Of a stretch of 64,000 nt of DNA, positions 7,961 to 57,590 are shown piece by piece; within the stretch, counting starts at the first letter, position 1, and every line of letters begins with the position of its first letter. The notes below the pieces were generated by a model, which worked only from the letters and a program-made list of their open reading frames with translations, was not told the DNA's origin and searched no databases. Source of the DNA: an uncultured delta proteobacterium (GTDB lineage Bacteria; Myxococcota_A; Polyangia; Polyangiales; Polyangiaceae); the NCBI GenBank assembly GCA_963839305.1, contig CAWIUL010000011.1:2441561-2505560 (forward strand). The letters are read 5' to 3'. Position numbers and translations under genes: made by a program.

Positions 7961-10900
7961 GCGCTTGTTTCCGCGCTTCCCGCCGCCCGTGGGCGGAACG
8001 GAGCGCGCGCGGCGGAACGGACGCGCGCGGCGGCGGCATGCTGTCGTGCGCGGCGGCGACGCGCTCGCTCACCGCGGAGCCGGTCGGCGGCAGCGTCTTC
8101 TTCATCTCCTCGCCGACGGGAGCGGTGGAGAGCACGCGCTCGAGCAGGCCGATGACGTCGTCGCCGTTCTGGCCCGCCTGCATCATCTCTTCGACGACGA
8201 GGAGCGCCGAGCCCGCGTCGCCGAGCTCGTCGAGCCACAGCGTGGCCATGCGAACGCGGAGGGCGTGCGCGTCCGGCGGGGGCTGTCCGCCGAGCTGCGC
8301 GCCGAGCAGGCCGATCAAATCGCGGTACTTGCCGTGGCGCTCGTAGAGACGCTCGAGCGACGCGAGCAATCGCTCGTTCTTCGGCTTGTAGTGGAGGAGC
8401 TGCTCGAGGTAGCCAATCGCGCGCTCCGCGTTCTTGGCGAAGTCTTTCGCGATCTGCGCGGCGTCCTCGAGGAGCTCGGTGCGGCGCGTCTCTTCGAGCT
8501 CGCCTCCGAGCACGCGATCGTAGAGCGTGAAGAGCTCGTCCCACCGCTCCTGCGAGTCGTAGAGGAGCTTGAGCCGATCGAAGGCCCAGCCCGCCGGGTC
8601 GATGTCCACCATCCGCTCGAGGATGCGGACCACGGCGGCCGCGTCGTCGAACCACTCTTCGTGGAACGCGACGGCGCGCTGCCCGAGCTCGATCGCGTCC
8701 TCGACCGCGATCGGCTTGCCCATGGCGGCTTGGTAGAGATCCGACAGGTCTTGCGGGCGATCGAGCGCGCGCGCGAGCTGCTCGGCGCGATCCCACCACG
8801 CGAGCTCCGTGGGAAGCTCGGCGAGCGCGCGGAGCAGGACGCCATACGCTTCGTCCTGCGACTCGACGAGATCGAGCAGCTGGCCGTGCCACGCGCGACG
8901 GCGATCGACAGGGGCCTCGATCGCGCTCGCGACGAGCGCCGCGAGGACGCGCTTGCGACCCTTCGCGTCTGCGCTCTCGAGCGACGCCTCGAGGAGCTTC
9001 GAAGCCTCCGGGCCGATCTCTTCGTGCGGAAGGAGCTTCACGAGGAGGCGCAGCGCGGCCTCGTCGTCCGAACGCTGCGAGAGCGCGGCGCGGATCTCGG
9101 TCATCGCGTCCGCCTCGCGGCCGGGGATCGACGCGAGGAGACCCGCGACCTCGGCGCGCAGCCGCGACGCGGCCTCGCCCTCGGCTCGAGCGAGGCGAGC
9201 GCGGAGCGTTCCGAGCGCGCCCTCGACGTCGCCGGTCGCGATCATCAAGCGAGCGATCTCGGCGTGCGGCTCCGCGGAGTCGGGCTCGAGCTCCGCGGCT
9301 TGTTTCCAGAGATCGATCGCGCGAGACGCGTCGCCGAGCTTCTCTTCCTCGAGCCGCGCAAAGCGTCCGAGCGCCGCGACGCGCGCGCCGCCTTCCGCGC
9401 CAGACGCGCGCCACCCGAGGAGCCAGCGCCACGACTCGGCCTCTTCGCGCGGCTCACGCTGGGCGAGGAGTGTCTCGAAGCGATCCGCCGCGCGCGCCTT
9501 CGTCTCTGGCTCCGAGTGGCGATCCTCGAGGACCTCGCGCAAGAGCTCCCGCGCTTCGTCCCTGCGCGACTCGTCGGCCGCGAGGACGTCGGCCTTGGCC
9601 GCGACGATGCGCGCGCGCACGGACGGATCGCGCCCGACCTCGCCCGAGAGCGCGCTCTCGAGCGTCTTCAGAAGCGCGCCGCTCGCCTCCGCGGCGATCC
9701 CGAGCTCGGTGAGCTTCACGAGGGTCGCCGCGTCGTCAGGCGCTTCGAGGAACGCGCGCGCCGCCGCGTCGAAGGCGCCGGGCGCGTCGTTCATGCGCGT
9801 CCGGAGCACGTCCGCGAGCTTGAGCAGCGCGTCCTTGCGCTCGACGCCGCTCGACGCCGACTCGACCAGCGCGGCGTAGAGCTCGGGCAGCGACGACCAG
9901 TCGCCGCTCGTCTCGACGAGCGACGCGAGCCGCTCGGTGGCCGTGCGATCGAAGGGCGCGCCGCGACGAATGCGCTCGTAGAGCTTGCGGGCGGTCTTGC
10001 GATCGCCCATCTCCTCGGCCGCGCGCGCGCCGTCTCGCCACGCGACGGCCGCAGCAGCAGCGTCTCCGCGCTCGTGTTGCAGCGTGCCGAGGCGCGTGAA
10101 CCAGAAGACCTTGTCTTCGCCCGAGTCCGCGAGCTCGACGCGCTTCGCCGCGGCGATCACGAGCAAGCTCGGGTCGTCTGCGCGCTCGGCGACCTGCTCG
10201 ACGAGGTCGAGATCCGCGTTCGTCGCGAACGCGTCCTCCGCGAGGGCCTTGGCGTGGACGACCGCGCGAGCGCGAAGCCCTCGCTCGGACGCGAGCCGCG
10301 CGAGGCGCGTGCGGAGCAGTCGCTCTTCCTCGCCCGGCGGCGTTCGCGTGAGGCGCTGCTCGAGGAGCGCGCACGCGTCGGGGAACGCGCCAGCCTCGCA
10401 GTAGAGCTCGAAGAGCGCGTCCTCGGTGGCGTCGTCGGATCCTTCGGCGAGGCTCGCGCGGAGCGTCTCGATGGCGCCGCCGCCGTCGCCGAGGTCCTTG
10501 CGCTGGAGGTTCGCGATCGCGAGGTGCAGACCTCGACGCTTCTCCGTGTGCGTCTCTCTCCCGAGCGCCGCGCGATAGAGGCGCACGCGATCGTGCGGCG
10601 TCCCCTGCTCGCGCAGGAGCAAGTCGACGCCCGCCATCAGCTCGGGCGAAGACGGCGCGAACTCGAGCGCGCGTTTGTACGCGTCGAGCGCGCGCGCACG
10701 ATCGCCCGCGACGAGCGCCGCGTCTCCGAGCCCTTGCGCGACCGCGAGGAGCTCGTTCGACGTCACGGGTTTGTCGCCGAGCGCGAGCGCGAGCACGTCG
10801 GCGCGCGCGCCTGCTCCACCCTCGCCTGGCGAGAGACGGTCGAGCGCGGCGATCCACGGCTCGACCGGCCGCGACTCGTCGAGCGCCTGCGCGAGCGCCG

Positions 10901-13062
10901 CGCGAACGAGGCCGAGCACGCGACCACGCTCGCTCGGGAGGCTCTCGGCGAGCGCCACGGCGCCTTCGAGCGCGTGCGTTCGCTCTTCGACGCTCGCGGC
11001 CCCGTTCGCCCGCGCGAGCAGCACGCGCAAGACGCCCGCCCTCGAGCCCTCGGAGCGATAAATCGGATCGAGCACTTCCGCGGCGGCGACCGCGAGCGGC
11101 GCGTCGGTCCCGTCGAGGAGCTGCTCCATCGCCTCGCGCGACATCGAGTCGTGCGGGTCGATCGAGAGCGCCTCGCGGAACGCGTCGACCGCGCCGCGGG
11201 AGTCGCCGAGCCACTGCATGCGCAAGAGGCCGAGCCGCGCGAGCGTCTCCACCTTCTCGCCGCCGTGCTCTTGCTTCGCGAGCGCCTCGTACGCCGTGGC
11301 GAGCGTGTTGAAATCGCGCTCGATCTCGAGCAGCGGAATCCAGCGCCGGAGGACCTCTTTCGTCGGCCCGAACTGCTCGACGATCTCGCGCCACGCGCTC
11401 GAAGCGGCTTGGTGGTGACCGGAAATCTCCGTCAGCTGCTCGGCAGCGCGCACGAGGAGAGCGTGCTTCGTCTCGCGCGAGGGCGCGTCGTTCGCCTTCG
11501 CGCGCAGGATCTCGGCGAGCCCCACCGCGTCGCCGAGCGACGACAAGAGCGGCTCGAGGGCGTCGAGCGCCCGAGCGCGCGCGGGCGTGTCGAGCAATCC
11601 GCGGTACGCCGAGACGGCGCGCGCGGGATCGCCGAGCGCGCCCGACGCGAGCTCCGCGAGCTGCTCGGCGGCCTGCTGCCGGCGCACGACGTCGGGCTCG
11701 GTGCGAACGATGCGCTCGAGCATCTCGGCGAGCGACACGTGGTCTTCGTCCTCGACGTAGAGCCGCGCGAGCGCGTGCATCGCGGGCAGCACGGCGAGCT
11801 CCGAGGCGCCGGGGACGGTGAGCGCGCTCGAGAACGCGGCGCGCGCGCGCTTCACGTCGCCCGTCGCGAGGAGGAGCTCGCCCATCTCGGCCGCGAGCCT
11901 CGCGCGCACCGACGCGTCCTTCACCCCGCTGACGAGACGCTGGAGGACCTTCTGCGCCGCCTCGTGCTTTCCGAGCGCGCGCGTGAGCTGGATGTAGCGC
12001 TCGAGGAGATCGTTGTCGGTCGCGTCGATCTGGATCGCCTGCTCGGCCGCTTCGTAAGCGCCGGCCATGTCCTCGAGGTGGTCTTGACGGATCGCCGCCA
12101 GCGCTCGAAGCGGGCCGAAGCGCCGCGGGCCGCGCGCGCTCTCGAGCTCGAGCGTGTAGTAGCGAACGGCGTCGCTCCACGCGTTTTGCTTCTCCGCGGC
12201 CGCCGCGAGCGCCGCTGCGGCGCGCTGCGCGCTCGCCTTCACCTCGAGCAAGCGAAGCCCGAGGCTCTTGGCGCCCTCGTGCCCCGGCGCGCGCCCGAGC
12301 AGCCACTCGACGTGTGGGAGGGAGCGCTCGATCTCGTTCGTCTCGTCGTAGAGCGCGAGCAGCTTCGTGCGATGGGCGAACGCCTCGTCGTCGGCGAGCG
12401 CTTCGTTGCCGAGCGCCTGCTCGAGCATCTTCGCGACGTCCTTCGGTCGCCCCGCGTGGAGGAGCGCGTTCTCGAGCTTGGAGCGCGCGTCTTCGTCCTT
12501 CGGATCGACGCGGACGATCATCTGGAGCACGTCGGCGAGCCGGTCGCCGGCCTCGCCCTTCTCGAACGCCTCGGCCGCCTTTCGAAGCAGCGGCGCCTGC
12601 TCGGCTCGCGGGCGGTGCTGGGCGAGCTCGAAGTAGAAGTCGCCGAGCTTGCGGAACTCTCCGGCCTTCGTGAGGTTGTGCTCGAACCGCTGCGATCGAT
12701 CCGGCGTGCGTCGGCATCGCCGACATCGCGCGATCCAGGTAGCTCGCGGCGCCCACGTCGTCGCCCATCACGTCGGCGAAGAAGATCGACGACTGGAACA
12801 TGAACTCCGCGACGACCCCCGCCTGGAGGGTTCGCAGCTTTCGATCCGCGGCGAGGCCTTCGAACGCGAAGGCGAGCTCGGTGACGCGGTCGTCGCGCTT
12901 GGCCGCTTCGTGCAGCTTGTCCCAGGCTTCTTTCGGAAGCTGGTTTCGCGCGAGAGCCAGGAGGAACGCGTCGAGAACTTCGGTTTCGTTTTCGAGACGT
13001 TGATCGAGCGCGTCGATCACCGCAGTGACACCTGCAGCACCCCGTCGAGTCGGTTCGCTCAT
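7575..13062 (-). CDS. giant TPR-repeat protein, N-terminal segment (start ATG ~13062; frame break ~12715; 3' ~465 nt beyond ~8040 out of frame)
   Basis: MSEPTRRGAAGVTAVIDALDQRLENETEV... is read in one frame to ~12720. It then continues in the listed 1651-aa ORF frame as RFEHNLTKAGEFRKLGDFYFELAQ.... The C-terminal ~150 aa of that ORF is Arg-rich junk. Confidence 0.55.
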
Positions 13063-18203: not shown

Positions 18204-19691
<1,488 letters not shown>

Positions 19692-19760
19692 ATTTTCCCC
19701 AGGGGGTTTGTGCGCCGGACGGGGTGCACGGTGTGTGCCATAGTGCCCGTGGCTAAGGAG

Positions 19761-20522
19761 ATGGCCGTGCTGTCTGATTTCGACCTCGAGTGGGAACGTT
19801 TGAAGGCCGTGCTGGCCGTGGTGGAACGCCACGCTGTCACGCGCGAGGAGCGCACGAAGGTGCTCGCGATCAAGCGCGCGCTGGAGGGCGACGACTTCGT
19901 GGGCGCGCTCTGCCACGATCTCAAAGATCCGCTCTCGGCGATCACGATGGGCGCTTCGCTCCTGAAGAAGCAGCTGCCGGAAGATCGCGCGCTTCACGCG
20001 GTCGTGAGCGCTGCGCGCCGGCTCGATCGCGTCGTTCAAAACGCGCGCGATCTCGAGATGCTCCGCGCGGCGAAGTTCACGCCCCAAGTCCGCGAGGTGC
20101 CGATCGCGTCGTTGCTCTTGCCCAGCGTCGAGCGCGCTCGCGCGGCTGCGAAGGCCAAGGGTGTGACGATCGCCTTCGAGGCAGCCGAGGCGCGCGCGAT
20201 CGTCGACGCGCACGCGACGGGTCGAGCGTTCGACGAGATCCTCGACAACTCCATCGGGTTCTCTCCAGAGGGCGCGACCGTGCGTGTGAGCGTCGAGCGA
20301 GACCGAATCGTCGTGGAGGACGACGGTCCCGGCATCGACGCCGCACACCTGCCCCACGTGTTCGACGAGACGAAGAACCGCGCGCACAGGCCGCGACGTG
20401 GCGCCGGCCGCGGCCTACCGCTCGCTCGCGAATACGCGCTCGCTCAAGGCGGCGAGCTCGATGTCAGCTCAGCCGAAGGCGCTGGCGTTCGCGTGATCCT
20501 CGCGCTGCGCACGGCCACGTAG
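19761..20522 (+). CDS. soluble sensor histidine kinase (HisKA + HATPase_c)
   Basis: AAGGAG RBS. H-box [12 protein letters not shown]-boxes DDGPGID and [18 protein letters not shown]. Divergent from the NtrC-type gene. Confidence 0.75.
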
Positions 20523-20574: not shown

Positions 20575-20590
20575 TGGCATGGCCGCTGCA
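20575..20590 (+). promoter_or_regulatory. candidate sigma54 (-24/-12) promoter
   Basis: TGGCATGGCCGCTGCA matches TGGCACG-N4-TTGCA with correct GG/GC spacing, ~40 nt upstream of the DUF1328 ATG. Confidence 0.5.
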
Positions 20591-28996: not shown

Positions 28997-30109
28997 ATGA
29001 AGCGCGCCCCCCTCGCAGGATTCGTCGTCGTCGCGCTCGCGTTCGCTTGCGGTGAGAGCTCGCCGCCGCCTCCGAACAACCCGCATCCGACGCCGAGCGC
29101 GTCCGCCGCGCCGACCACTTCGGCTTCGCAGACGGCTTCGGCGTCGGCTTCGGCTAGCGTCGTCGCGCCGCCGCCGAAGGACGTCGCGTGCGAAGCGCTC
29201 GACGAGGAGCGCAAGGCGCAGAACGCCAAGCTCAAGACGATCACCGAGAACAAGGACCCGCTCTCGCACGTGCAGTCGCTGAACGATGACGTGATGGGCG
29301 CCTTCACGAAATGCACGAAGACGAAATCGGGCGGCGCGTGGGGCCTCGGCCTTCGCGATTTGAAGGAGGAGCTCCACGGCGTCACCGCGCAGCTCGTCGC
29401 AATCCACGTCGATGCGAAGGGCGCCAAGTCGAGCGTCGTCCTCCAGGGCACGGCGCGCCTCAAGGACCGCGCTTTCCAGAGCCACGAGATGGACCGCGTC
29501 GCCATCGACACGCAGTCGGCCTACGACTTCGACGGCGACGGTGAGGACGAGCTCATCGCCATCGCGCACGACCAGACGAAGGACGGCCCGCGCGATCCGC
29601 TCGCGTACATCGTCGAGCTCAAGAACGGCAATGCGCAGATGTACGCGCCCGCGAAGGACCTCCCGATCTTCCGCGTCGAGGACGTCGATCGCGACGGCCG
29701 CCCGGATTTCGTCTCGTACGGTCCGTATCGCGCGCGCGTGCCGGCGCGCTGCAACGGCGCGCCCTCGCAGGTCGTCGGCCCGGCGCTGCTCGTGCACTCG
29801 CTGCCGAACGGGATGTTCTCGATGACCGACGACAAGGCGCTCGCGTTCGCGAAAGAGCACTGCGAAAAGCCCGGCTTCACCGTCGCGCGCGACGACGAGA
29901 AGCACGTCGACGACGATCAAACCTTCGTGAACATCGCGTGCGCTCGCCTCTGGGGCATGAGCGAGGCGCAGGCGGTCCAGGCCGTCGCGCAAAACTGCAA
30001 CGCGATCCGCGGCGAGGCGAGCTGCAAGGACACGTCGCTCACGACGTGCGTGTACCCCGCCGAGATGACCGCGTGGGCGCGCGCGAAGCCGCCGCTCGTC
30101 CTCAAATGA
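28997..30109 (+). CDS. lipoprotein, hypothetical (DFDGDGEDE acidic motif)
   Basis: MKRAPLAGFVVVALAFACG lipobox signal. Confidence 0.55.
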   Translation: MKRAPLAGFVVVALAFACGESSPPPPNNPHPTPSASAAPTTSASQTASASASASVVAPPPKDVACEALDEERKAQNAKLKTITENKDPLSHVQSLNDDVMGAFTKCTKTKSGGAWGLGLRDLKEELHGVTAQLVAIHVDAKGAKSSVVLQGTARLKDRAFQSHEMDRVAIDTQSAYDFDGDGEDELIAIAHDQTKDGPRDPLAYIVELKNGNAQMYAPAKDLPIFRVEDVDRDGRPDFVSYGPYRARVPARCNGAPSQVVGPALLVHSLPNGMFSMTDDKALAFAKEHCEKPGFTVARDDEKHVDDDQTFVNIACARLWGMSEAQAVQAVAQNCNAIRGEASCKDTSLTTCVYPAEMTAWARAKPPLVLK

Positions 30110-30912
30110 CGGCGCTCAAAGACGTCGAGCTCCACTACGACGTCCACCTCGCCGAGCACTACTCGTGGCTCTTCGGAGGCCTCCCGGAGCGCGTCGCGGA
30201 GAACCGCGCGCTCTTCGAGAAGCTCGGCCTTCGCGCGGAGCAGGGCGCGCGCGCCTTGGACGTCGGCGCGGGCTCGGGCTTTCAGTCGATCCCGCTCGCG
30301 CAGCTCGGCTACGCGGTCACCGCGGTCGACCTCAGCGCGAAGCTCCTCGGCGAGCTCGCGCAAAACGCCGGGGACCTGCCCGTCGAGACGATCCGCAAGG
30401 ACATCCTCGACTGCATCGTCGACATGCCGTCGAAGTCGTTCGCCGTGTGCGTCTGCATGGGCGACACGCTCACGCACCTCGGGAGCTTCGGCGACGTGCA
30501 GCGGCTCCTCCGCGAGGTGAACCGCGTGCTCGCGCCCGGCGGCACGTTCGTCGTCGCGATCCGCGACTACTCGCAAGAGCTCCGCGGCGACGCGCGCTTC
30601 ATCCCCGTCCGCGCCGACGAGCGCACCGTGTTCTCGTGCTTCCTCGAGTACGAGGGCGATCACGTGCGCGTCTACGACGTGATCCACTCGCGCCGAGAAT
30701 CGCGAAGCGACGCGGAGCGCTTCGAGAGAACGGGGGCGTCGGGGGCGCAGCCCCCGGCCGAAGATCTCGGCTGGGACATGCGCGTCTCGTCGTACAGGAA
30801 GCTCCGCATCGCGCCCGACTGGCTCGAAAAGCGCACCACCGAGACCGGCTTCGAGGTCGTCTCGAAGGACGTCGCGCACGGGATGTTCACCCTGGTTTTG
30901 CGCAGGGCTTGA
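30106..30912 (+). CDS. class I SAM-dependent methyltransferase
   Basis: LDVGAGSGFQSIPLAQLGYAVTAVDLS motif I. ATG overlaps the upstream lipoprotein stop (ATGA). Confidence 0.75.
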   Translation: MTALKDVELHYDVHLAEHYSWLFGGLPERVAENRALFEKLGLRAEQGARALDVGAGSGFQSIPLAQLGYAVTAVDLSAKLLGELAQNAGDLPVETIRKDILDCIVDMPSKSFAVCVCMGDTLTHLGSFGDVQRLLREVNRVLAPGGTFVVAIRDYSQELRGDARFIPVRADERTVFSCFLEYEGDHVRVYDVIHSRRESRSDAERFERTGASGAQPPAEDLGWDMRVSSYRKLRIAPDWLEKRTTETGFEVVSKDVAHGMFTLVLRRA

Positions 30913-30994
30913 TCCGTTTTGGAGCGCGGGCGCGCGGCGGCGCGCGCCGCTGCGCGGATTTGTGCGCGGCACGCGCGGTGCAATCCCATCGCGC

Positions 30995-33007
30995 ATGACC
31001 GACACGCGCGAACGCGACATCCTCGTGGCCTCGAACGAATATGCGTACGTCCAGGATCTGACGAAGGGCGACATCGTCCTCTACGTCGGACCGACGAAGA
31101 TCAGCCTCTCGAACACCGAGCGGCTCGTCGACTACCAAAACGGCCGGTTCTTGCCGATCCGCGCGGATGAAGGCAACGCCGTCGCGACGTTCGTGAGCGC
31201 GACCTCCTCGCAGTACATCGTGCTCGAGAACCCGCCGAAGGATCCCGGGGTCAAGCCCGTGAAGGGGAACAACAGCGCCGTCGAGCTCCGCATCGGACGC
31301 AAGGTCGTCGTGCCCGGGCCCTCGTCGTTTCCGCTCTGGCCCGGGCAGCGCGCGCGCGTCGTCGACGGTCACTCGCTGCGCGAGGACGAGTACCTCATCG
31401 TGCGCGTCTACGAGACCAACGAGGTGACCCAGCACCCCATCGGCACCGAGACGATCGTGCGCGGCACCGACACGAGCTTCTACGTCCCGACGACGGGTCT
31501 CGAGGCCGTCGCGACCCAATCGGGCTACGTGCGCAAGGCGCGCCGGCTGCGTCGCGGCAAGGGACTTCACCTCCGCGTCGTCAAATCGTTCGACGTTGCC
31601 GTTGGCGACGTCCCGCTTCGCGGATCCGTCGACGCCGTCGAGGGCGACACGCTCCCCCTCGGCCACTACGAGGCCGGCCAGGACATCTTCATCGCGGATC
31701 GCGAGGGCTTCTTCTTCCCGACCGCGAGCGTCGAGGTCGTGAGCGAGATCTCCGCGATCCCGCTCGGCGAGCGTGAGGGCGTCTACGCGCGCGACATCGC
31801 GAGCGGGCGGATCGAGACGGTCACCGGGCCGATCAACTATCTGCCCGATCCGACGCGCGTCGAGATCGTCGCGCGCTCGATCGACGACGACCGCGCGGAT
31901 CTCTACGGCGTCCCGCGCGATCGCGACGTGACGCGCGCGCTCTCGATCCACGTGCCCTCGAGCTTCGCGGTGCTCGTGACCGCCAAGAACAAACGCGAGG
32001 TCGTGCGCGGACCGCAGACGCGCGTGCTCGACTACGACGAAGACCTCGAGGTGCTCGAGCTCTCGACGGGCAAGCCGAAGTCGCAGGAGCGCACGCTCCG
32101 CACATGCTTCCTCCAGACCGACGGGAACAAGGTCTCCGACGTGCTGCGCGTGAAGACGGGGGACCACAACGAGGTCGAGGTCGTCGTCTCCTATCGCGTG
32201 TCGTTCGTCGGGCTCGAGCACGCCGAGCGCTGGTTCAACGTGAAGGACTACGTCGGCCTCTTGTGCGACCACGCGGGCTCGCTGCTCCGCGCCGCGGCGC
32301 GCGCTTGCTCGATCGAGGCGTTCTACCAGAACAGCACCGACGTCCTCCGCTCCGCGATCCTCGGCGAGAAGCGCGAGGGCGAGCCGCGCCCCGGCCGTCA
32401 CTTCGAGGAGAACGGGATGTGGATCTACGACGTCGAGGTCCTCGACGTGCGCATCCTCGATCCCGAGGTGCAGGTCCTCATCGGCGGCGCTCAGCGCAAC
32501 GCGATCGTCGCGGACGTGTCGAGGCGGCAGGAGCTCTTGCGGCTCGAGACCGAGCGCCTCAAGGAACAAGTGCGCCGCGCGATCTGCGACGAGCAAGCGC
32601 AGACGATGGTCGCGGAGCAGGCGCGCGTCGAGAAGAAGCGCGCGGTGGATCTCGCCACCGCCGAGTCCGCGGCCGCGGTCGTCGGAGTCTCGGACGCGGC
32701 GCGCATCGCGAGCAAGGAGCGCGAGAACGAGGTCGAACGGAAGATGCTCGACGCTCGCGTCGCCGCGTTCCGAGAGCAAATGGCCGCGCTCGCGCCCGAG
32801 CTCGTCTCGACGCTCAAGACGCTCGGTCACCAGCAGCTCGCCATGGAGCTCACGAAGAGCGCGTCGCCGCTGGCGATCCTCGGCGGCGAGAGCGTCACCG
32901 ACGTGGTCGAGCGCCTCCTCGGCGCGCTCCCCATCGGCGCGGATGCAACGTTGAAACAGCTGCTCCCTCCGAAGAACGGGCGCTCCGAGAAGGCCGCCAA
33001 GACCTGA
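30995..33007 (+). CDS. major vault protein (MVP) homolog: MVP repeats + shoulder (SPFH-like) + short cap-helix
   Basis: N-terminus [35 protein letters not shown] matches MVP [38 protein letters not shown] matches MVP DPFPLYPGE. The shoulder domain [27 protein letters not shown]...[10 protein letters not shown] is followed by a coiled-coil Glu/Arg-rich helix. Confidence 0.7.
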   Translation: [670 protein letters not shown]

Positions 33008-33030
33008 AAAAGCGGGTGTAGAGTGGGCAC

Positions 33031-34530
33031 GTGCGGAAGTCGTTCGCGATCGTCCTTGGGGCTGCGGCGATGTTGGGTGCGTGTGGGAAGACGCCACCGA
33101 GCGCGACCGACGCTGCACCGTCCGTGAGCGCGAACGCGGTGTTCGTCGTGCCCACCGTCGCTTGGGATCCCAAGACGCGCGACGACGCGATCGCCGCCGG
33201 CAAGGCGGTGCTCGTCAAGAACGAGTGCCGCCGCTGCCACGACATCGACGATCTCCCCGCGCCCGTTCGTCCCAACTACTGCACGAGCTGCCACGAGTTT
33301 CTCACGGGCCTCAAGCCCGGCGAGAAGCAGTACGAAGAGCTGAAGACGCGCTACGGCGAAGCGATCCTCCAGCGCTATCAGAAGAACATCGTGCACCTCA
33401 TCAAGGTGCCGAGCCTCACGAACCTCGGGTGGCGCGTGCGCGCCGACTACGTCGCGAGCTTCCTCTCCGAGCCGTACGACCAGCGGCCGACGCTCGAGGA
33501 GAGCATGATCCGCCACGCGCTGAGCGACGACGACATCAAGGCCGTCGCGCGCTACTTCGCGGCCGTCGCGAACGCGCCCGATCCGTACGCGGCAGACTAC
33601 AAACCACCCGCGCTCGGAAAGCGCCCCGCGCAAGAGCGCATCGAGAAGGGCAAGAAGCTCCTCGCGACCAAGGGCTGCAACGCGTGCCACACGTTCGGCA
33701 ACGTCGACCTCGGCTTGCCTCGCGCGTCGCTCGAGGGCGCGCGCGCGATGAACCAGCTCGCGCCGAACCTCCGCTACGCGAAGGAGCGAACGCGCCCCGA
33801 CGTGATCGTCGCGTGGATCCAGAACCCGCAGCAGATCACGCCCGGCACGATCATGCCGCCGAGCGGCCTCTCGCGCGACGAGGCCGAGCAGATCCGCGAC
33901 TACCTCTTCTTCGGCGATCCGGAGCTTCATCAGGCGCCCCCGACGCTCGTCCCGCCCGCGCCGCAGATCCTCCAGCGCGAGGTCCCGTGGGAGGAGATGA
34001 AGGCGCGCACGATCGGCAAGGTGTGTGTCCACTGCCACATGAACGACTTCGAGAAGGACACGGGCCCCGGCAACAAAGGCGGCTTTGGTTACAAAGGCAT
34101 CGGCCTCGCGATGCGCACGTACGAGGCGCTCGTGAACGGCGCCGTCGGCCCCGACGGCAAGCGCTACTCGGTCCTCGTGCCGAAGCAGGGCGAGACCGAG
34201 GCGCCGATCGTCGCGGCGATGCTCAGGCGAAAGACCGAGGAGCAGCGCGATCACGTCCCTGCGCTCGAGGACTACGACCGCCCGCACTACGCGAAGGCTT
34301 TCTCGGTCGCGTTTCTCGGGATGCCGATGGGGCTGCCGTCGATGACCGACGAGGAGATCTCGATCCTCGCGACGTGGATCGCGCAAGGTTGCAAGGGCCC
34401 GAAGACCGTGTGGGGCAAGCCGGGCGTCAACGACGGCCTGCTCGTGCAAGACGGTCCGCTCAAGAAGAACCAAGGCTGCGAGCAGCGACCGCCCGAGCAC
34501 CCGCGCCCGAAGTGGGCCTTCGATCAGTGA
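33031..34530 (+). CDS. tetraheme c-type cytochrome lipoprotein
   Basis: MLGACG lipobox. Four CxxCH motifs (CRRCH, CTSCH, CNACH, CVHCH). Starts 24 nt after the MVP stop. Confidence 0.7.
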   Translation: MRKSFAIVLGAAAMLGACGKTPPSATDAAPSVSANAVFVVPTVAWDPKTRDDAIAAGKAVLVKNECRRCHDIDDLPAPVRPNYCTSCHEFLTGLKPGEKQYEELKTRYGEAILQRYQKNIVHLIKVPSLTNLGWRVRADYVASFLSEPYDQRPTLEESMIRHALSDDDIKAVARYFAAVANAPDPYAADYKPPALGKRPAQERIEKGKKLLATKGCNACHTFGNVDLGLPRASLEGARAMNQLAPNLRYAKERTRPDVIVAWIQNPQQITPGTIMPPSGLSRDEAEQIRDYLFFGDPELHQAPPTLVPPAPQILQREVPWEEMKARTIGKVCVHCHMNDFEKDTGPGNKGGFGYKGIGLAMRTYEALVNGAVGPDGKRYSVLVPKQGETEAPIVAAMLRRKTEEQRDHVPALEDYDRPHYAKAFSVAFLGMPMGLPSMTDEEISILATWIAQGCKGPKTVWGKPGVNDGLLVQDGPLKKNQGCEQRPPEHPRPKWAFDQ

Positions 34531-34587
34531 GCTAGACGCAGCGCTCACCGAAGCAGAGCAGGTATTCGACCGTGTTTGCGTATGAAA

Positions 34588-34705
34588 CGCGGCAGCGTCG
34601 AAATTCCCGGCCGGACCGGCACGTGCCGTGTCGAACGAAGAATTTGGCCACGACGTTGATGCGCCACTCGCAGACTGACGCGGCACGTCGCGGCCCCGCC
34701 GCGCA
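34588..34705. repeat. copy 2 of the ~130-nt intergenic repeat element (CGGCACGTGCCG palindrome)
   Basis: Aligns with 23573..23704. Lies in the convergent gap between the cytochrome gene and the OPT transporter gene. Confidence 0.5.
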
Positions 34706-34734
34706 TTCTCAGGTCGGCTCGGGCGAGCTTCTGA

Positions 34735-36708
34735 CTACTCGAGGTAGCCCGCCGCGCTGAGGAGCGCGACGACGACGCCGAGCAAGCTCTCGCCCGCGAT
34801 GATTCCCGAGGCGACCGGCGTGACGTAGCGCTCCGCGTGCTCCGCGCGATACTTCGTCCACGCGTAGGCGATGAGCGCGCCAATGAACATCGAGACGGAG
34901 TTGAAGCACGGGATGACGAGCGCGAGCCCGAGGCCCGTCGCGCTCGGAATCCACTGCTTGTACTTCGGCAGCCACAGCTCGAGCAGCGGGAGCACGATGC
35001 CGATGAGGCCGCCGATGACGAGGCCCCAGCGCGCCCACGGGTGGAGCGACTCGACGCCGTTCGCGAGGACCTCGGCGACGCCCTTCCACACCTGCGCGCT
35101 CGGCGCGGGGAAGCGATCGGTGCCGAGCGCGTCGGGCGTCGGCACGAGGACGTAGAACGCCGGGACCGAGACCGCGGTCCCGACGAGCGTGCCCGAGAGC
35201 TGCGCGAGGAACTGCTGGCGCGGGTTCGCGCCGAGGAGGTATCCGCTCTTCAAGTCGTTGAGAAGATCGGCGGACGCGCCCGCGGTGCTCGCCGTGATGC
35301 TGGCGGTCATGAGGTTCGTGACGATCTTCGCGGGCGCGAGGATTCCGTACGTGAGCTGGGTGATCTTGCCCATCGCGCCGATCGGCGTGATGTCCGTCTC
35401 GCCGGTCGCGCGGCACGCGACGATCGAGAGCATGAACGCGAGCATGACGGCGATGACGCCGAGCCACGGGCGAATCTCGAACGCGACCCACCCGATGATG
35501 ACGATGCCGATCGTCGAGAGGACCGTCCCCACCGCGAACCAAGACGACGGGACCTCGATCTTCTCGAGCTCGCCGCGCGCCTTCTCGAGCGGATCCGCCG
35601 AGGCGGCGTCGTGGTGCTCTTTGCCCTTCTTGAGGAGCTTGCCGAAGCCCGAGAACGCGCGGAGCACCGTGCGCCATTGGAGCGCGAACGTGAGCAGGCC
35701 CGACGTGACCATGATCGCGGCGCCGGGCCACAAGCTGAACGACACGACGGCGCGGTAGCCGAGCGCGGGGGCGCCGTGCGCGTCGAGGTGCGTCTTGATG
35801 GCGCCAGCGTCGAGCGCCATCGGCGCGAGCACGCCGTAGTTCACGAGCGCCGCGACGAGCATGCTGATCGTCGTGCGCAGGCCCATCAGCATTCCCGCGC
35901 CGACCATGATGAGCGAACCCTCGAACGAGATCGTCCACTGCGTCAGCGCGAGGCCGCGGATCTTGAGGCCCGGGATCTTGATGAGCGACGGGATCGTCGG
36001 GTTGTCCGCCGGGCCGCAGAGCTTCGTGAGCGCGCCGAGGATCGGGTGACCGCCCGCGGCGTGCGCGTCACGGAGCCACGCGATGATCGCGCCGACGCCC
36101 ATCGTCGCGAAGAGCGAGCGCGCCTTCGTGATGGCCTCGCTGCCCGCGCCGTAGAGCGACTTGAGCGTCTCGGCCGCGGCGGTGCCCGATGGGAAGCGCA
36201 GCTTCTCGATGTTGATCATCTGGCGCTTCATCGGGATCGCCATGATCGTGCCGAGCACCGCGAGGAAGAACAGCCAGCCCATGAGCACGAACATCGGCAG
36301 GTGCTTGCCGCGCACGAGGAGCAGCGCCGAGATCGCCGACGCGAGGATCGTCGTCGTCGTGTTGGCGGCGCTCGACGCGGTCGACTGCATCGCGTTGTTC
36401 TCGAGGATCGTCATGTTCGTGCCGAACAGCCACGGCAGGATGCGCGACAGCGTCGAGTAGATCGCGAACGAGAGGATGCACGCGGTGATGGCGACGCCGA
36501 GCCCCCAGCCCGTCTTCAACCCGACGTACAGGTTCGACAGGCACATGATCGCGCCGATGAGGCTGCCGACGATGAACGAGCGCAGCGTGAACTGCCGGAC
36601 GTTTCCGCGGTAGACGTTGTGGAACCACTCGACCTCGGGATCGAGCTTGTCTTCCGGACGCGGGTTGGGCGCGCGATAGGGTTGTTCCTTGTCGGCGTGT
36701 TCGGCCAT
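34735..36708 (-). CDS. OPT family oligopeptide transporter
   Basis: About 16 TM segments; typical OPT/TIGR00733-like composition; 657 aa. Confidence 0.8.
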   Translation of the reverse strand: MAEHADKEQPYRAPNPRPEDKLDPEVEWFHNVYRGNVRQFTLRSFIVGSLIGAIMCLSNLYVGLKTGWGLGVAITACILSFAIYSTLSRILPWLFGTNMTILENNAMQSTASSAANTTTTILASAISALLLVRGKHLPMFVLMGWLFFLAVLGTIMAIPMKRQMINIEKLRFPSGTAAAETLKSLYGAGSEAITKARSLFATMGVGAIIAWLRDAHAAGGHPILGALTKLCGPADNPTIPSLIKIPGLKIRGLALTQWTISFEGSLIMVGAGMLMGLRTTISMLVAALVNYGVLAPMALDAGAIKTHLDAHGAPALGYRAVVSFSLWPGAAIMVTSGLLTFALQWRTVLRAFSGFGKLLKKGKEHHDAASADPLEKARGELEKIEVPSSWFAVGTVLSTIGIVIIGWVAFEIRPWLGVIAVMLAFMLSIVACRATGETDITPIGAMGKITQLTYGILAPAKIVTNLMTASITASTAGASADLLNDLKSGYLLGANPRQQFLAQLSGTLVGTAVSVPAFYVLVPTPDALGTDRFPAPSAQVWKGVAEVLANGVESLHPWARWGLVIGGLIGIVLPLLELWLPKYKQWIPSATGLGLALVIPCFNSVSMFIGALIAYAWTKYRAEHAERYVTPVASGIIAGESLLGVVVALLSAAGYLE

Positions 36709-36727
36709 GCGGCCGTCCTAACATGGC

Positions 36728-39700
36728 CTAGCGGCCGGACATGCAGCGAAATGATTGACGCGCGCGGTCGACGAAGATGCCCGCGGTCGCGAATGGGCCG
36801 TCGACCTTGCCGAGCGATCCGGTGGAGGTCGCCTCGCCGTAGCCGTTCATCGCGATCTTCTCCACGCACAGAGCGTCGGCGGTGATGTGGTAGCGCGCGA
36901 GCATGCCGGTCGACGAGTAACCGTGGAGCTGCGCGCCCGACGCGCCCATGACGGTGATGGCTCCGCCGGGCCAGCGACCGTCGACGACCCACCCGCCGTC
37001 TTGCGGTCCGCAGACGCGCGCCTGCTTGCCGCTCGCGTCGGAGTAGCCGAGCCGCTCCGGATCGTGGAGCGTGCCGGAGTCGACGTCGATCGGGAGGACC
37101 CACGTCTGGTTCTGCCAGCGCGAAGGGCGCGCGGCGCCTTCGCTCATCGGCGGTCCATCGACGAGCGCGCCGAGCATGCGACCGTCGGCGCGCTTCGCGA
37201 GGCGGAGCGAGAGCGGTCGCGTGGTGCCCTCGTACCCCGCGCGCGGCACACGCGCGACCTCGCGGGCGCTGCCGTTTTCGAGCTCCCAAATCGCGGTCGC
37301 GAGCGGCTCGCTCGTCGCGAGGTACCACCGGCCGCCCATGCGCACCGCGGACTCGAGATCGCCGAGCGGCTGCCCGTCGGCGCGGTGCACGTCGACGGCC
37401 GGGCGATCGGCCTCGAGCTCCACGATGACCACGTCGTTGTTCTGCTGGCCGGCCGAGTAATACCCGCGGTGGAGCACGAGGAGCGCGTGCGACGCGTCGT
37501 CACCCGGGACGACCGCGAAGCTCTGGATCGGGTGCGGAATGCCGCCACCGAGCCCGATGAAGTTCGTCGCGTCGGTGATGTATTTCGGGATGGGCGTCGA
37601 CTGCGTCGCGCGGAGCACGTTCGAGCTCTCGAAGGGCGACGTGAAGCGCACCATGAAATGCCCGCGCACGTCCCACTCGATGCCCTTCTGTCCCCACGCG
37701 TAGAGGCGCGCGATGCGCGACACGTTGAGGTGCCCCGAGTTCGAGCGATCGATCGCGCTGCGATCGTAGAGCTCGTCGATCGGGCGGCTCCAGCCGAGAT
37801 CGTCGGTGGCGAGCTTCGGCGCGTCGATCGAGAAGAACGACTGCCAGTCCTGCGTGGTCGGCGCGCCGTAGCGGTATCGGTAGCTGTAGCTGCCGTAGTA
37901 GCCGCCGTACTCGTTGGTGCGCGCGGCGGTCGTGTCGTTGCTCGTCGGCGCGAGCTTGCCAACGAGCTCGCAGCGGAGCGGGAGCGTCTCGGGCGAGCGC
38001 ACGTCGACCGTGCGCGGCGGCGGCGCGGAGACGTCGTGCGACGTGGTCGCGTCCTCCGCGCCCCAACCGACGCGGATCCAACCCGCGAGCACGCAACCGA
38101 GCGGGCCGCACCCGTGCGACGACGCGCCCGACGCGGGCCCCGACGCCTCGAGCGGCTCGGGGAGCGCGAGCGCGCGCCACGTCATGCCGCCGTCGAACGT
38201 CTCGTAGCCCTGGCGCGAAGGCGTCCACCCGAGGCCGTAGCGGCCCGAGACGACCGCCGTGCCGAGATCCGCGACGTACGGGCCGTGCTTCGCGTGACCG
38301 CTGACGTTCACCTCGACGCCGACGTAGCGGCCCGAGTGCTCGACCCACGCCGAGAGCATGCCGGGCGTCCGCTCCTCGACGCCGCGCAGCCACGTGCCCG
38401 AGCGGAGCACCGCGTTGACAATCGCGTCGTCGTCCGGCGCGGGGCGATCGTCGTCGTCGTCATCGTCATCGGCGCGCTTCGCCTTGACCGGCGCGCTCGG
38501 CTTCGCGCCGTCGAACACAATCGGGATCGTCGTGGGCTTCGTGCCGTCGAAGATCGTGATGCGAGCCGTCGCGAGAATCCGACGCGGGCGGCGACAGGAT
38601 CGCGGTGCGCCCATCCATGAGCGGCACGACGCGCTCGGTGCCCACGTCGCCGTTCACGACGAAGTCCTCGAACGCGCCTGTCTTGCGCATGATGCAGTAG
38701 CGCTGCTCGGTCTTCTTGATGTCGACGGGCGTCGCGTCCGCGTCGCACGCGCCCTCGACGACGAGCGTGCCGTTGCTCGGCGAGAAGACCGCGCGCGGCG
38801 AGTCGAAGTGGCGAAGGACCGCGAGCTTTCCCGCTCGCGCGTCGTACGCGTAAATCTCCGTCGCGCCGTGCGGCATCCCGCACACGAAGCCGAACGATGC
38901 GGGCGCCTTCGGCGGCGAGAGCGACACCGCGTGGCATCGCGAGGGCTTCAGCGGGAACGCGTCGGGCGCGGTGTCGACGATGCCGCCGTCGGCGAGCCGC
39001 ACGCGCGAGAGCGCGCCGTCCTTCGCGACGAGCGCCGTGCCGCCCTCGAGCGGCCAGCCGTCGAGCACCGCCGCGGCGAGCGGGTTCTTCGCCGCCGCGC
39101 GCGCGGGGTCCTCCGGCTCGGCGCGCGGCTTCGCGTGCACGACGCGATCGGCGTCTTGGAGGCGAGCGATCTGTCCGCTCGGCTGCACCGCGTAGGCCTG
39201 CGTCGCGCCCGCAGCGTCCGTGCCCGTCACGACGATCGCGTCGCCGACGAGCTTCAGATCCTTGGGCTGGATCGGCAAGTTGAGCGGCTGCCATTTGCCG
39301 CCGGCGTCGAACGTCGCGACGACGCCGCGAAGATCCGCGATCGCGACCGCGCGCCAACCGTCGGCCGCGACGTAACGGATCACGTCGGGGCTCGGAGGCC
39401 ATGGGCCGAGATCCATCGACGTGCCCGTCTTCACGTCGAACGCGGCGTATGCGTTGTTCGACATGCGCACGTACGCGCGATCGAGCCCGACGAAGAGCTG
39501 CGTCGGCTGCACGCGCGGCTCGTAGAGCCCGCGGAGCGGCGCGAGCCATTTGTCCGCGCGATACACGGCGGTGCCGATCACGAAGAGGAACCCGCTGCCG
39601 AGCCGCTCGGGGATCTCGACGGTCACGCTCGGCGGCGACGGGAGCGGATCGGACGCGCTCTCGATCCCGCCGTTCGCGAGCCGAACGACGCGCACGTTGC

Positions 39701-39914
39701 CCACGAGCATTCGCTTGCCGCCGCCCGGCTCGGTCCCGAACGTCCTGTCGTCGTCGCCCGGACGAACCGGGACGAGGCGCGCCGGGTGAAGCGTCGGATC
39801 GGCGATCGGCGCGACGGGCGTGCGCAGCGCTGCGCGGCTCGCGTCCTCGGGCGGCCTCGCGGGCCCACACGCCGCGAGGAGCGCTCCCGCGACCACGATG
39901 CGAAACGGCTTCAC
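36728..39914 (-). CDS. large secreted lipoprotein (~1050 aa) with a frame break at ~38570
   Basis: LLAACG lipobox at the N-terminus. The two listed ORFs overlap by 150 nt in different frames. The sequence ...GRTAILSPPAS (first ORF) continues as RITIFDGTKPTTIPIVFDGAKPS in the second. Confidence 0.5.
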
Positions 39915-39932
39915 GTAGACGAGGTTAGCGCT

Positions 39933-40538
39933 TCACGGCGAGAGGCGCTCGATCCGCCACGCTGCCCCTTGCCGCGTGTAACGGAGGCGGTCGTGGAGGC
40001 GATGGACGCGACCCTGCCAGAACTCGAAGACCGCGGGTTTCACGCGAAAGCCGCCCCAGAACGGCGGGACCGGCACCTCGCGCCCTGCGTACTCTTCCTC
40101 GATTTCGACGACGCGCGCCTCGAGCTCCGCGCGCGAGATCGCCTCGCTCTGCACGGACGCCCAGGCGCCCACCTGCGACTCGCGCGGGCGCGTGCGGAAA
40201 TACGCCGCCGACTCCTCGCGCGTGACGCGCTCCACCGCGCCTTCGATGCGGATTTGCCGCGCGAGCGGCGCCCAGAAGAAGAGCAACGCGACCTGGGCGT
40301 TGTGCTCGAGCTCGCGCCCCTTGCGGCTTCCGTAGTTCGTATAGAAGACGAACCCGTTCGCGTCGTACTCCTTCAAGAGGACCATGCGCACGCTCGGGGC
40401 GCCCGCGCGGGTCGAGGAGGCGAGCGCCATCGCGTTGGGTTCGGGCAGGCTCGCGGTGTGCGCGTCTTCGAACCACTGCTTGAACTGGGCGATCGGGTCG
40501 AGGTTCGCCGACTCCTCGGTGAGCGTGTCGTCCGCCAT
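39933..40538 (-). CDS. pdxH: pyridoxamine 5'-phosphate oxidase
   Basis: IRIEGAVERVTREESAAYFRTRPRESQVGAWASVQS...FWQGRVHRLHDRLRY. Confidence 0.85.
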   Translation of the reverse strand: MADDTLTEESANLDPIAQFKQWFEDAHTASLPEPNAMALASSTRAGAPSVRMVLLKEYDANGFVFYTNYGSRKGRELEHNAQVALLFFWAPLARQIRIEGAVERVTREESAAYFRTRPRESQVGAWASVQSEAISRAELEARVVEIEEEYAGREVPVPPFWGGFRVKPAVFEFWQGRVHRLHDRLRYTRQGAAWRIERLSP

Positions 40539-40626
40539 GGCCACGATGTAGCACCGACCGGCCGCTGTTCGCTCGAGCACGTTCTTTGCGATATCATCCG
40601 CCGGGCGTGAGAGGCATCGAGCTCAA

Positions 40627-54420: not shown

Positions 54421-54460
54421 CCCTCCGTCTCCGTCTCCGTCCCCGTCTCCTTCTCCTCTT
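54421..54460. repeat. second (CGTCTC)n-type microsatellite tract, same orientation as 53415..53519
   Basis: CCGTCTCCGTCTCCGTCCCCGTCTCCTTCTCC. Confidence 0.65.
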
Positions 54461-55898: not shown

Positions 55899-56816
55899 CA
55901 GCGGCGCGGAGACGCCCTCCTCGCCGAGCGCCGTCGTCGCGAGCAGCACGAGCAGGACCCACACGACGTCCGCCGAGAGCAGGTGGAGGAGCTGAAGCCA
56001 CGTCGGCGCGAGCATCATGATGTTGAGCGCGCCGAGGCCGAGCTGGACGAAGTACGCGATCGAGAGCGCCCGCGAAAATCGCTGCACGAGTGGCGTCGGG
56101 CGAACGACCGGCGCGAACGTCGCCAGCGCGAGCAAGAGCACACCCGCGCCGATGGCGACGAACGGGTGGAGCGAGCGCAGCCGGATGAACACGGGCGCCG
56201 ACGGCGCGAGGTCTTGCGCGAGGCCCTGCGCGACCGAGTGCGAGGGGTAGAGCGTGTCGCCGAGGGCCGCGATGGATCCCGTCGCGCCGACGACGAGCGC
56301 CGCGGCGAGCGCTCCGAACGCGAGCGCCCCGAGCCACCCGCGCCCGCGGAACGCGAGCGGCGGCGCGCCCGCCGAGACGCGCGCAGTCACGGCGAGGCTC
56401 GCGAGCAGAACGAACGTGTTCGTGAGGTGGAGCCCCGTCGAGACGCCGCGACGAAGCGAGAGATCATGCGCGACGAGCCGCAAGAGCACGAGCGCCGCGC
56501 CGATGAGCGCCTCGGACGCGGTGAACGCGAGCACCCACGCGGCCCATCGCCGCACGAGCGCGCCCTTCGACGCGATCCGCGTGGCCCACACGAACAGCGC
56601 GACCGCGAGGATGAGCGACCCCCCGCTCGACAGGCGGTGGCTGAGCTCGACGATCGTCTTCGTCTGCGTAGCGTGCGGCACGAGCTCGCCGTTGCAGAGC
56701 GGCCAGTGGCTCCCGCAGCCGTCGCCCGAGAAGCTCACGCGAACGTAAGCGCCCCACAAAACCACGAGCACGTCGTACGCGAGGACCAGCCAGACGAATC
56801 GAGTGAAGCGACGCAT
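55680..56816 (-). CDS. ctaA: heme A synthase (CtaA/COX15 family); 3' tail probably out of frame
   Basis: GCGSHWPLCNG motif; multiple TM helices. The last ~70 aa are Arg-rich and overlap the convergent vWA gene. Confidence 0.7.
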   Translation of the reverse strand: MRRFTRFVWLVLAYDVLVVLWGAYVRVSFSGDGCGSHWPLCNGELVPHATQTKTIVELSHRLSSGGSLILAVALFVWATRIASKGALVRRWAAWVLAFTASEALIGAALVLLRLVAHDLSLRRGVSTGLHLTNTFVLLASLAVTARVSAGAPPLAFRGRGWLGALAFGALAAALVVGATGSIAALGDTLYPSHSVAQGLAQDLAPSAPVFIRLRSLHPFVAIGAGVLLLALATFAPVVRPTPLVQRFSRALSIAYFVQLGLGALNIMMLAPTWLQLLHLLSADVVWVLLVLLATTALGEEGVSAPLLLGRQKQRSQDLRLLGDRAVVRVSREQRHRVRVEPRDLPEPARARHVVADERCVESLERRERGGVRDDVAEA

Positions 56817-56887
56817 GGCGGACCTGGCCTTAGCATAGACGCGACCAAAAGTTGGCCCAGTCGGCTCGACAATGCGACAGCCGACGG

Positions 56888-57581: not shown

Positions 57582-57590
57582 CCCGGGGCC

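Follow-up and report, generated by a model that had tools for sequence, protein, structure and literature searches.

A short-form major vault protein homolog from a Polyangiaceae bacterium and its predicted control by sigma-54

Introduction

Vaults are known from eukaryotes as closed cages composed of two halves with 39 subunits each. The first repeat in major vault protein (MVP) forms the vault waist, where the two halves meet, and MVP and other SPFH-fold proteins assemble laterally through the shoulder domain and the helix. To our knowledge, the question of what vaults do has awaited an answer for about 40 years. Here we analyse a stretch of 64,000 nucleotides, in the following termed the window, from an uncultured delta proteobacterium of the Polyangiaceae (assembly GCA_963839305.1, contig CAWIUL010000011.1, positions 2,441,561 to 2,505,560 of the forward strand), which carries at positions 30995-33007 a gene for an MVP-like protein.

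Bacterial homologs of MVP have been studied in silico. Homologs from myxobacteria and from other bacteria were listed by Daly et al. 2013 (PMC3762200), who predicted their MVP-like folding and docking and proposed horizontal transfer for them, and a 2019 preprint by Sokolskyi (10.1101/872010) analysed bacterial homologs further. In a 2023 preprint on phage MVP the proteins of Corallococcus and Melittangium were placed in a tree, and the average length of reported bacterial MVPs was given as 822 aa. A study in Nature Microbiology of 2026 (PMC12962969) reported five-repeat homologs from Asgard archaea and mentioned bacterial homologs in "only a few Bacteria". The literature searched yields no experimental work on any bacterial member, in agreement with a preliminary description of this locus according to which no bacterial vault has been characterised, and no paper that joins "major vault protein" with sigma-54 terms. 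The window gene is a further member of a family already known in silico from myxobacteria, and its novelty was overstated in the preliminary description, as such homologs had been reported in 2013 and 2019. What the present analysis adds is a conserved, predicted sigma-54 promoter accompanied by a candidate activator site, a short architecture of about six repeats and the actual extent of the family.

Results

Identity and domain architecture of the MVP-like protein

The gene and its parts are listed below by window position. The residue ranges were delimited by strand parsing of an AlphaFold2 (AF2) model against the profile alignment.

30995-33007, + strand: MVP-like gene, 670 aa, starting 82 nt 3' of a methyltransferase gene
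30995-32125, + strand: repeat region, aa 1-377, about six five-stranded beta repeats
aa 10-58: repeat A
aa 62-126: repeat B
aa 128-186: repeat C
aa 187-243: repeat D
aa 244-314: R8-like repeat, including a short helix (298-304)
aa 315-377: R9-like repeat
31328-31348, + strand: FPLWPGQ loop, aa 112-118, within the repeat region
32069-32080, + strand: keyhole-loop motif G359-K-P-K362, within the repeat region
32126-32461, + strand: shoulder (SPFH-fold) domain, aa 378-489, Pfam MVP_shoulder
32462-32812, + strand: cap-helix domain, aa 490-606, one continuous helix of 117 residues in the AF2 model
32813-33007, + strand: C-terminal tail and stop codon, aa 607-670, predicted local distance difference test score (pLDDT) below 55

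The product is a soluble, acidic protein of about 74 kDa (73.8 kDa, pI 5.7), homologous to eukaryotic MVP along its whole length. The relatives of the window are Polyangiaceae and other Myxococcota, and its G+C content is about 69%. The Pfam model MVP_shoulder (PF11978) matches aa 378-489 with 97.6 bits against a cutoff of 25 (E 6e-28) and Vault_3 matches aa 329-374 with 32.0 bits (cutoff 28.8). The Vault_4 model stays below threshold, and the canonical Vault repeat PF01505, one of the Pfam models proposed for comparison in the preliminary description, is without match in the Pfam scan. A phmmer search of the PDB with the single sequence returned MVP chains only (E 4e-26), aligning residues 233-622 with MVP 358-784. 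The family profile likewise found only MVP chains (E 1.3e-50); here the alignment runs from profile position 148 to 592 and covers residues 292-775 of human MVP. When the first 140 aa alone were compared with the PDB, no significant MVP match was obtained (E 1.4), and the N-terminal ca. 240 aa are recognisable as MVP repeats by profile and structure only.

The AF2 monomer model, built from 62 sequences (mean pLDDT 77.8), consists of beta repeats, an alpha/beta shoulder and a single helix spanning residues 490-606. Its 12 best Foldseek matches are vault structures (E 1e-32 to 2e-26), followed by murine MVP R1-R7 crystal structures (E ca. 1e-11); SPFH cages appear only at ca. 3e-7 and align to the shoulder part. 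Among the 62 aligned relatives, MVP_shoulder and Vault_3 were detected in all, Vault_4 in 50 and Band_7 in 3 (weakly), while Band_7 gave nothing at E<=0.01 on the window protein. It is thus practically certain that 30995-33007 encodes a member of the MVP family, and the data support that the protein is not a plain band-7 protein. The architecture of repeats, SPFH-like shoulder and cap helix proposed in the preliminary description is borne out by the Pfam, PDB and AF2/Foldseek results.

Classical SPFH scaffolds such as HflK/C, flotillin, stomatin or prohibitin offer a different reading, in which the protein would form a single dome or ring seated against the inside of the cytoplasmic membrane, where it would organise a membrane microdomain or a client protein, instead of building a free two-halved vault. 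A hydropathy scan detected neither a signal peptide nor a transmembrane or hydrophobic segment (maximum 19-residue hydropathy 1.27) which could serve as anchor. The place of the membrane anchor is taken by about 377 residues of MVP-type beta repeats, which make up the barrel wall in vaults, and MVP structures match the model far better than SPFH cages in Foldseek. Moreover, clustering of the open reading frames (ORFs) at 58 loci revealed no conserved membrane-protein or protease partner near the MVP gene. Given the lack of an anchor and the presence of a 377-residue repeat wall, a membrane-apposed SPFH-type dome is disfavoured and appears rather improbable.

Conserved residues and the keyhole loop

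The alignment of 62 sequences, the members of which are 58-95% identical overall, contains 129 invariant columns. Its most conserved part is located in the first repeat (aa 12-43, 99% mean column identity), and we infer that this segment provides a conserved interface between two halves. The "PLYPGE-like loop" of the preliminary description is real: F112-P-L-W-P-G-Q118 is invariant or nearly so in the relatives and aligns to "FFLQPGE" of MVP. Secondary-structure parsing of the AF2 model indicated about six repeats and not nine, and the segment preceding the shoulder comprises 377 aa compared to 519 aa in rat MVP. The cap helix aligns to that of MVP up to approximately residue 784. The tail, which aligns weakly to the vault cap-ring region (phmmer domain 3, rat MVP 726-840), carries a conserved LKTLG...SPLAILGGESV...LPIG segment with the invariant residues P625, L626, L629, G630, G631, P646 and G648.

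In the keyhole loop, G359, P361 and K362 are invariant and align to G503, P505 and K506 of human MVP, K360 corresponding to R504. Furthermore, L373 equals human L517. These human residues are part of the NAD+/ADP-ribose pocket as described in PMC12280208. A pocket for an anionic ligand or a nucleotide at the position of the keyhole loop is no more than possible on the basis of these residues. NAD+ binding is not claimed, as the human pocket is only partially conserved (about 4 of 13 residues).

Family size and distribution

Bacterial MVP homologs, described as rare in the preliminary description, turned out to be numerous. A word-index search gave at least 631 clusters at 90% identity (E<=0.001), and an exhaustive search of 50%-identity representatives gave 1120 matches at E<=0.001 and 505 at E<=1e-30. 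The loci are mostly from Myxococcota (Polyangiaceae, Labilithrix, Haliangium, Archangium, Kofleriaceae), others from Planctomycetota, Acidobacteriota and a few further groups. In longer relatives (745-979 aa) the shoulder is found within residues 444-790, so that more repeats precede it at the N-terminus. The family thus has short (about six-repeat) and long forms, and the window protein belongs to a short subfamily of 650-720 aa. One locus (L011), on a contig labelled as uncultured Clostridia, encodes an MVP of 51% identity behind an AT-rich upstream region unlike all others and may belong to the Clostridium/phage-associated MVP group of the 2023 preprint. No relatives were found in viral contigs scanned with the family alignment.

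The patchy occurrence across Myxococcota, Planctomycetota, Acidobacteriota and other phyla and the horizontal transfer proposed for bacterial MVPs (PMC3762200) would be compatible with an evolutionary leftover, for example of a transfer involving eukaryotes, which has no role in cage formation or persists as a non-assembling soluble binding protein. Such a scenario is very improbable in view of the size of the family and of the strong constraint reflected in the invariant columns. In addition, every domain needed for vault assembly is kept, including cap helix and tail, and a conserved dedicated promoter (see below) argues for regulated use.

A predicted sigma-54 promoter upstream of the MVP-like gene

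Within the 70 nt preceding MVP start codons a recurring element, GGCAC-N5-YYGC, was observed, which in the window corresponds to the following feature.

30967-30982, + strand: predicted sigma-54 (RpoN) type -24/-12 promoter, CGGCACG-CGCG-GTGCA (CGGCACGCGCGGTGCA), 10/12

In this element, GG occupies positions 30968-30969 and GC positions 30980-30981, and the start codon follows 13 nt after the C of the -12 element. Coding-strand sites no more than 100 nt from the start codon were scored against TGGCACG-N4-TTGCW, with GG-N10-GC required. Scores of at least 9/12 were reached at 43 of 56 loci, compared to about 1.3 expected, the background being 0.024 sites per 100 nt on each strand, and scores of at least 10/12 at 33 of 56 loci (0.25 expected). 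All 43 site-bearing loci are labelled Myxococcota, a phylum represented by 48 loci, and none of the eight loci from other phyla (Planctomycetota, Acidobacteriota, "Clostridia") carries a site. The derived consensus, YGGCACG-N4-TYGCW, equals the sigma-54 consensus of Myxococcus xanthus quoted in PMC9765219. The flanking DNA is mostly unalignable, with 13 similar pairs found across the 56 sequences, and site and ATG are 13 to 59 nt apart; shared ancestry alone does not explain the pattern.

An artefact of GC-rich composition or a remnant of shared ancestry, with an ordinary promoter being used instead, has to be weighed against this assignment. The window contains six sites of at least 10/12 on both strands of its 64 kb, which is about the background rate, so that a site of this quality taken by itself may arise by chance. 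The case rests on positional conservation across loci which are phylogenetically related to each other; the conserved site is known from sequence alone and the transcription start is predicted. Against an artefact stands the 30- to 130-fold enrichment, restricted to the coding strand and to 100 nt or less from the start codon. Moreover, unscored or weakly scored positions follow the consensus (C in 42, A in 38, C in 37 and W in 40 of the 43 sites), and the surroundings are unalignable between most loci in spite of the conserved element. At the same position, Planctomycetota loci have sigma-70-like hexamers. Overall, we consider the artefact very unlikely, and control of the MVP gene by sigma-54 in Myxococcota appears likely from the comparison of these upstream regions.

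The two Planctomycetota loci concerned (L008 and L046) are devoid of a sigma-54 element and have TTGACG...TAGAGT and TTGACC...TAGATT upstream of MVP, which makes the regulatory mode look lineage-specific. The spacing between promoter and start codon differs within the Myxococcota as well. The GC of the -12 element lies 13 nt before the ATG in the window and in its closest relatives L001, L002 and L048, and 19-20 nt before it at about 13 loci. Loci with a spacing of 41-47 nt carry GGAG-type ribosome-binding sites. In the lineage of the window (30981-30997), a start about 12 nt downstream would result in a leader of 1-3 nt and no Shine-Dalgarno sequence.

A candidate activator site

Analysis of k-mer enrichment in the 250 nt upstream of the promoters identified the 7-mer CCGTTTC/GAAACGG at 11 of 43 loci (0.8 expected). 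Judged from its surroundings, it seems to belong to an inverted repeat, CTCCG-TTT-CGGAG, often located 45-90 nt upstream of the -24 element. This 13-mer is present with up to three mismatches at 23 of 43 loci compared to about 2 expected, and with up to two mismatches at 9 of 43 loci (0.2 expected). The corresponding feature of the window is situated 55 nt upstream of the -24 element and directly after the methyltransferase stop codon.

30912-30924, + strand: candidate site for an activator (enhancer-binding protein, EBP), ATCCGTTTTGGAG, 2 mismatches to CTCCG-TTT-CGGAG

Our working hypothesis is that the inverted repeat could act as an upstream EBP site. The 82-nt gap between methyltransferase and MVP genes harbours both the predicted promoter and the candidate activator site and would therefore be a regulatory region for MVP alone.

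A gene for a response-regulator-type sigma-54 activator is present in the window at 18204-20387 (- strand), 10.6 kb from the MVP gene. In the divergent intergenic region beside it lies a sigma-54-like site (20575-20590, + strand, TGGCATGGCCGCTGCA, 10/12), which precedes small ORFs for a short membrane protein, a receiver domain and a ferritin-like protein and which, taken alone, is at chance level. Elsewhere, at 54423-54456, a tandem hexamer, (CTCCGT) x 5.7, was noticed near the start of an unannotated ORF of 510 aa; its repeat unit is identical to the left arm (CTCCGT-TT) of the candidate activator site, which may be a coincidence.

Neighbouring genes

The MVP-like gene is flanked on the same strand by two genes. 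These two and the MVP-like gene lie where the preliminary description had placed them, and their products (268, 670 and 499 aa) are identical to public gene calls.

30106-30912, + strand: generic class I S-adenosylmethionine (SAM)-dependent methyltransferase, 268 aa, Pfam Methyltransf_11/25 (E 5e-16)
33031-34530, + strand: tetraheme c-type cytochrome lipoprotein, 499 aa, Pfam Cytochrom_C, four CxxCH motifs, lipobox

The nature of both neighbours agrees with the preliminary description, which had recognised a SAM methyltransferase 82 nt upstream and a lipid-anchored tetraheme cytochrome 24 nt downstream. The solved structures nearest to the methyltransferase are small-molecule N-methyltransferases, and a comparison with NCBIfam found no model near its cutoff. 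The first base of the cytochrome gene lies 24 nt beyond the final base of the MVP stop codon (23-nt spacer). It has a lipobox LGAC (Cys18) and CxxCH motifs at residues 66, 84, 216 and 332, and all four motifs are kept in 116 of 120 homologs; the family is widespread in Myxococcota. The PADLOC defence models matched neither the MVP-like protein nor the cytochrome, and the methyltransferase only as a generic methyltransferase domain.

The three genes, presented in the preliminary description as a trio with suggested co-transcription and a possible link between a vault-like shell and a periplasmic redox protein, could be taken for a co-transcribed functional module. For such a module speak the common strand, the short gaps of 82 and 23 nt, the absence of a detectable terminator between the MVP and cytochrome genes in a scan of 29800-34900, and the adjacency of MVP and cytochrome genes in L001, L002 and L048. 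The same scan for sigma-70 promoters and terminators gave no promoter-like site and one terminator-like site at chance level.

The arrangement was surveyed by tblastn of the eight local proteins of the window against 57 genomic loci, and one more contig (L058) was compared in addition. Three loci alone, L001, L002 and L048 (75-80% identity), have the MVP gene between both neighbours, and there collinearity extends over the whole neighbourhood. In L058 (69% identity) methyltransferase and cytochrome are both missing beside MVP, at 61-65% (L003, L004 and L049) no cytochrome is present within 6 kb of it, and about 50 further loci have neither neighbour. All-versus-all clustering of ORFs detected nothing common to the 58 loci beyond the MVP gene and its shadow ORFs; the largest neighbour cluster comprises Ser/Thr kinases at 15 loci in varying positions and orientations. 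A conserved operon across diverged relatives was thus not found.

Several further observations separate the neighbours from the MVP gene. Even in the close relatives L001, L002 and L048 the distance between methyltransferase and MVP genes is 1.2-1.5 kb. The methyltransferase directly adjoins MVP in the window genome only, since other genes intervene over 0.65-1.5 kb in relatives, and in L003 and L004 it is inverted and distant. In L001 (ca. 4663-5790, - strand) and at the same place in L002 a divergent lipoprotein gene, absent from the window, splits the two; in its product a beta-propeller-like region comes after a collagen-like G-x-y repeat. The predicted sigma-54 promoter in the 82-nt gap would make the MVP gene independent of the methyltransferase promoter. 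A GC-rich palindrome at 30923-30957 does not exceed shuffled sequence in stability (z -1.49) and could conceivably act as a weak terminator of the methyltransferase gene.

The cytochrome belongs to a different gene block. In the genome of L049 (MVP 65% identical) its ortholog is located at 383 kb and MVP at 6.79 Mb of a 7.0-Mb contig, which leaves 0.59 Mb or more between them even on a circular contig, and the ortholog is followed by an OPT transporter and a PNPOx gene as in the window. This order of cytochrome, OPT transporter and PNPOx genes is conserved between 33031-40580 of the window and a 64%-identity ortholog (L059, 6001-13527). In the genome of L004, 12 kb separate the cytochrome from MVP, and a GMC oxidoreductase gene begins within the stop codon of the cytochrome gene (L060, 6001-9164). 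This translational coupling suggests that the cytochrome is the electron-acceptor subunit of a periplasmic dehydrogenase. The placement in L049 and L004 therefore assigns the cytochrome to the right-hand block, to which MVP has been juxtaposed in one lineage. The two proteins also differ in compartment, because the MVP-like protein has neither signal peptide nor transmembrane segment, whereas the cytochrome is an exported lipoprotein with a lipobox.

The synteny data largely refute the three-gene module, which has become extremely improbable, and neither the trio as a functional unit nor the link of a shell to a periplasmic redox protein is upheld. The MVP gene is highly probably independent of both neighbours: the methyltransferase is an accidental neighbour outside the MVP system, and the cytochrome is likewise an accidental neighbour, not a conserved partner, for which co-transcription with MVP is possible in this one lineage and, in this genome, at most by read-through.

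Other features of the window

No TEP1/TROVE or PARP4 domain was found among about 35 window proteins scanned, and an Rfam scan of the whole window for a vault-RNA or Y-RNA-like element returned no match of any kind. The region 56001-58000 has an AT skew of 0.29, compared to |0.16| or less in every other 2-kb bin. Genes for a CtaA/COX15 heme A synthase and for a fatty-acid hydroxylase are located there on the minus strand, and the skew is not accounted for by a tandem repeat. The left part of the window, with a G+C content of 72-73%, contains at 2627-12530 (- strand) two overlapping ORFs of very large size (1777 and 1651 aa), the first of which is TPR-rich.

Discussion

The results make it probable that 30995-33007 is a stand-alone, activator-controlled gene for a short-form bacterial MVP which would form a vault-like cage. 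In a tentative scenario, the gene would be silent by default, and a dedicated, unlinked enhancer-binding ATPase would activate the sigma-54 promoter upon a signal. As a rule, the sigma-54 regulons of myxobacteria are devoted to starvation, development and stress. The subunits might then self-assemble laterally via shoulder and cap helix into a closed dome, and two domes may pair via the nearly invariant N-terminal repeat, at the position of the vault waist, to give a cytoplasmic vault-like cage shorter than the eukaryotic one. Its lumen-facing keyhole loop with the G-(K/R)-P-K motif may bind an anionic ligand or a nucleotide. Assembly into a ring or dome is somewhat favoured, and a closed particle of two halves is conceivable but doubtful. 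A true prokaryotic vault in the full sense, i.e. a closed two-halved six-repeat cage with a nucleotide-binding lumen, inducible through sigma-54 and an EBP by a stress or developmental signal, would go further still and seems unlikely.

Several points weigh against this scenario, in addition to the background frequency of promoter-like sites and the relatedness of the loci mentioned above. Cage assembly, expression and start site are matters of prediction for every family member. AF2 was run on a monomer, and the N-terminal repeat and the C-terminal tail are of low confidence. With the predicted start site, the gene of the window would have an unusually short leader of about 2 nt. Discovery and test of the activator-site motif drew on one set of sequences, and an EBP gene adjoins MVP at only 1 of 57 loci. 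Among the residues of the human NAD+ pocket, R507, P508, H509, R511, D521, F522 and W545 are replaced, so that about four of 13 are kept. Finally, the 23-nt spacer and the lack of a detected terminator leave co-transcription of MVP and cytochrome possible in this genome.

The finding leaves the question of function and assembly of the bacterial homologs unchanged. The family, already known from myxobacteria, has far more members than published work suggests. The absence of operon partners implies that cargo or function has to be sought elsewhere. The promoter offers an experimental route, because activator and signal would show when the bacterium makes vault-like particles. If the protein formed a true prokaryotic vault, vault biology would gain a bacterial model that is open to genetics and has a defined regulatory input, and a functioning vault would be present in a bacterial lineage often invoked in eukaryogenesis.

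Comparison with known systems

Eukaryotic MVP (rat and human; PDB 4V60 and 9BW5) and the window protein have the same order of elements, namely beta repeats with an xPLxPGx loop, shoulder, cap helix and a cap-ring-like tail, and their homology is significant by sequence, profile and structure at about 20% identity. The eukaryotic protein has nine repeats and a cap helix of about 155 residues, compared to about six repeats and 117 residues here. The G-(K/R)-P-K motif of the keyhole loop is common to both, whereas most residues of the NAD+ pocket are replaced in the window protein. Unlike eukaryotic MVP, the window gene appears to be under bacterial sigma-54 regulation, and its particle formation is predicted only.

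The known bacterial MVP-like proteins comprise H8MNI3 of Corallococcus coralloides, A6FXM1 and A6FXE2 of Plesiocystis pacifica and those of Melittangium boletus, Saprospira and Microscilla. The MVP-like proteins reported from "chemotrophic bacteria" are of the same kind and phylum, about 25% identical to eukaryotic MVP and described in silico only. Compared by description and not by direct alignment, reported bacterial MVPs (822 aa on average) are longer than the window protein with its 670 aa. The Asgard homologs (PMC12962969), from a different domain of life, possess cap helix, shoulder and five repeats compared to about six in the window protein, both numbers being predictions; a decameric closed cup was modelled there and a monomer here.

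SPFH cages such as HflK/C, flotillin, prohibitin, stomatin and QmcA share the SPFH fold and a long ring-closing helix and are the second-best structural matches. They are membrane-anchored and have no MVP repeats, whereas the window protein has no anchor, about 377 residues of repeats and no Band_7 match.

For the predicted regulation, the Nla28 regulon of Myxococcus xanthus (PMC9765219) is the system compared here. The Nla28 sites are tandem direct repeats of 8 bp, whereas the window motif is an inverted repeat with a TTT spacer; its CTCCG/CGGAG arms are similar to the five leading bases of the Nla28 half-site CT(C/G)CG(C/G)AG, which serves as a lead only. The promoters of both systems follow the same consensus, TGGCACG-N4-TTGC(T/A), with activator sites, candidate ones in the case of the MVP-like gene, located upstream.

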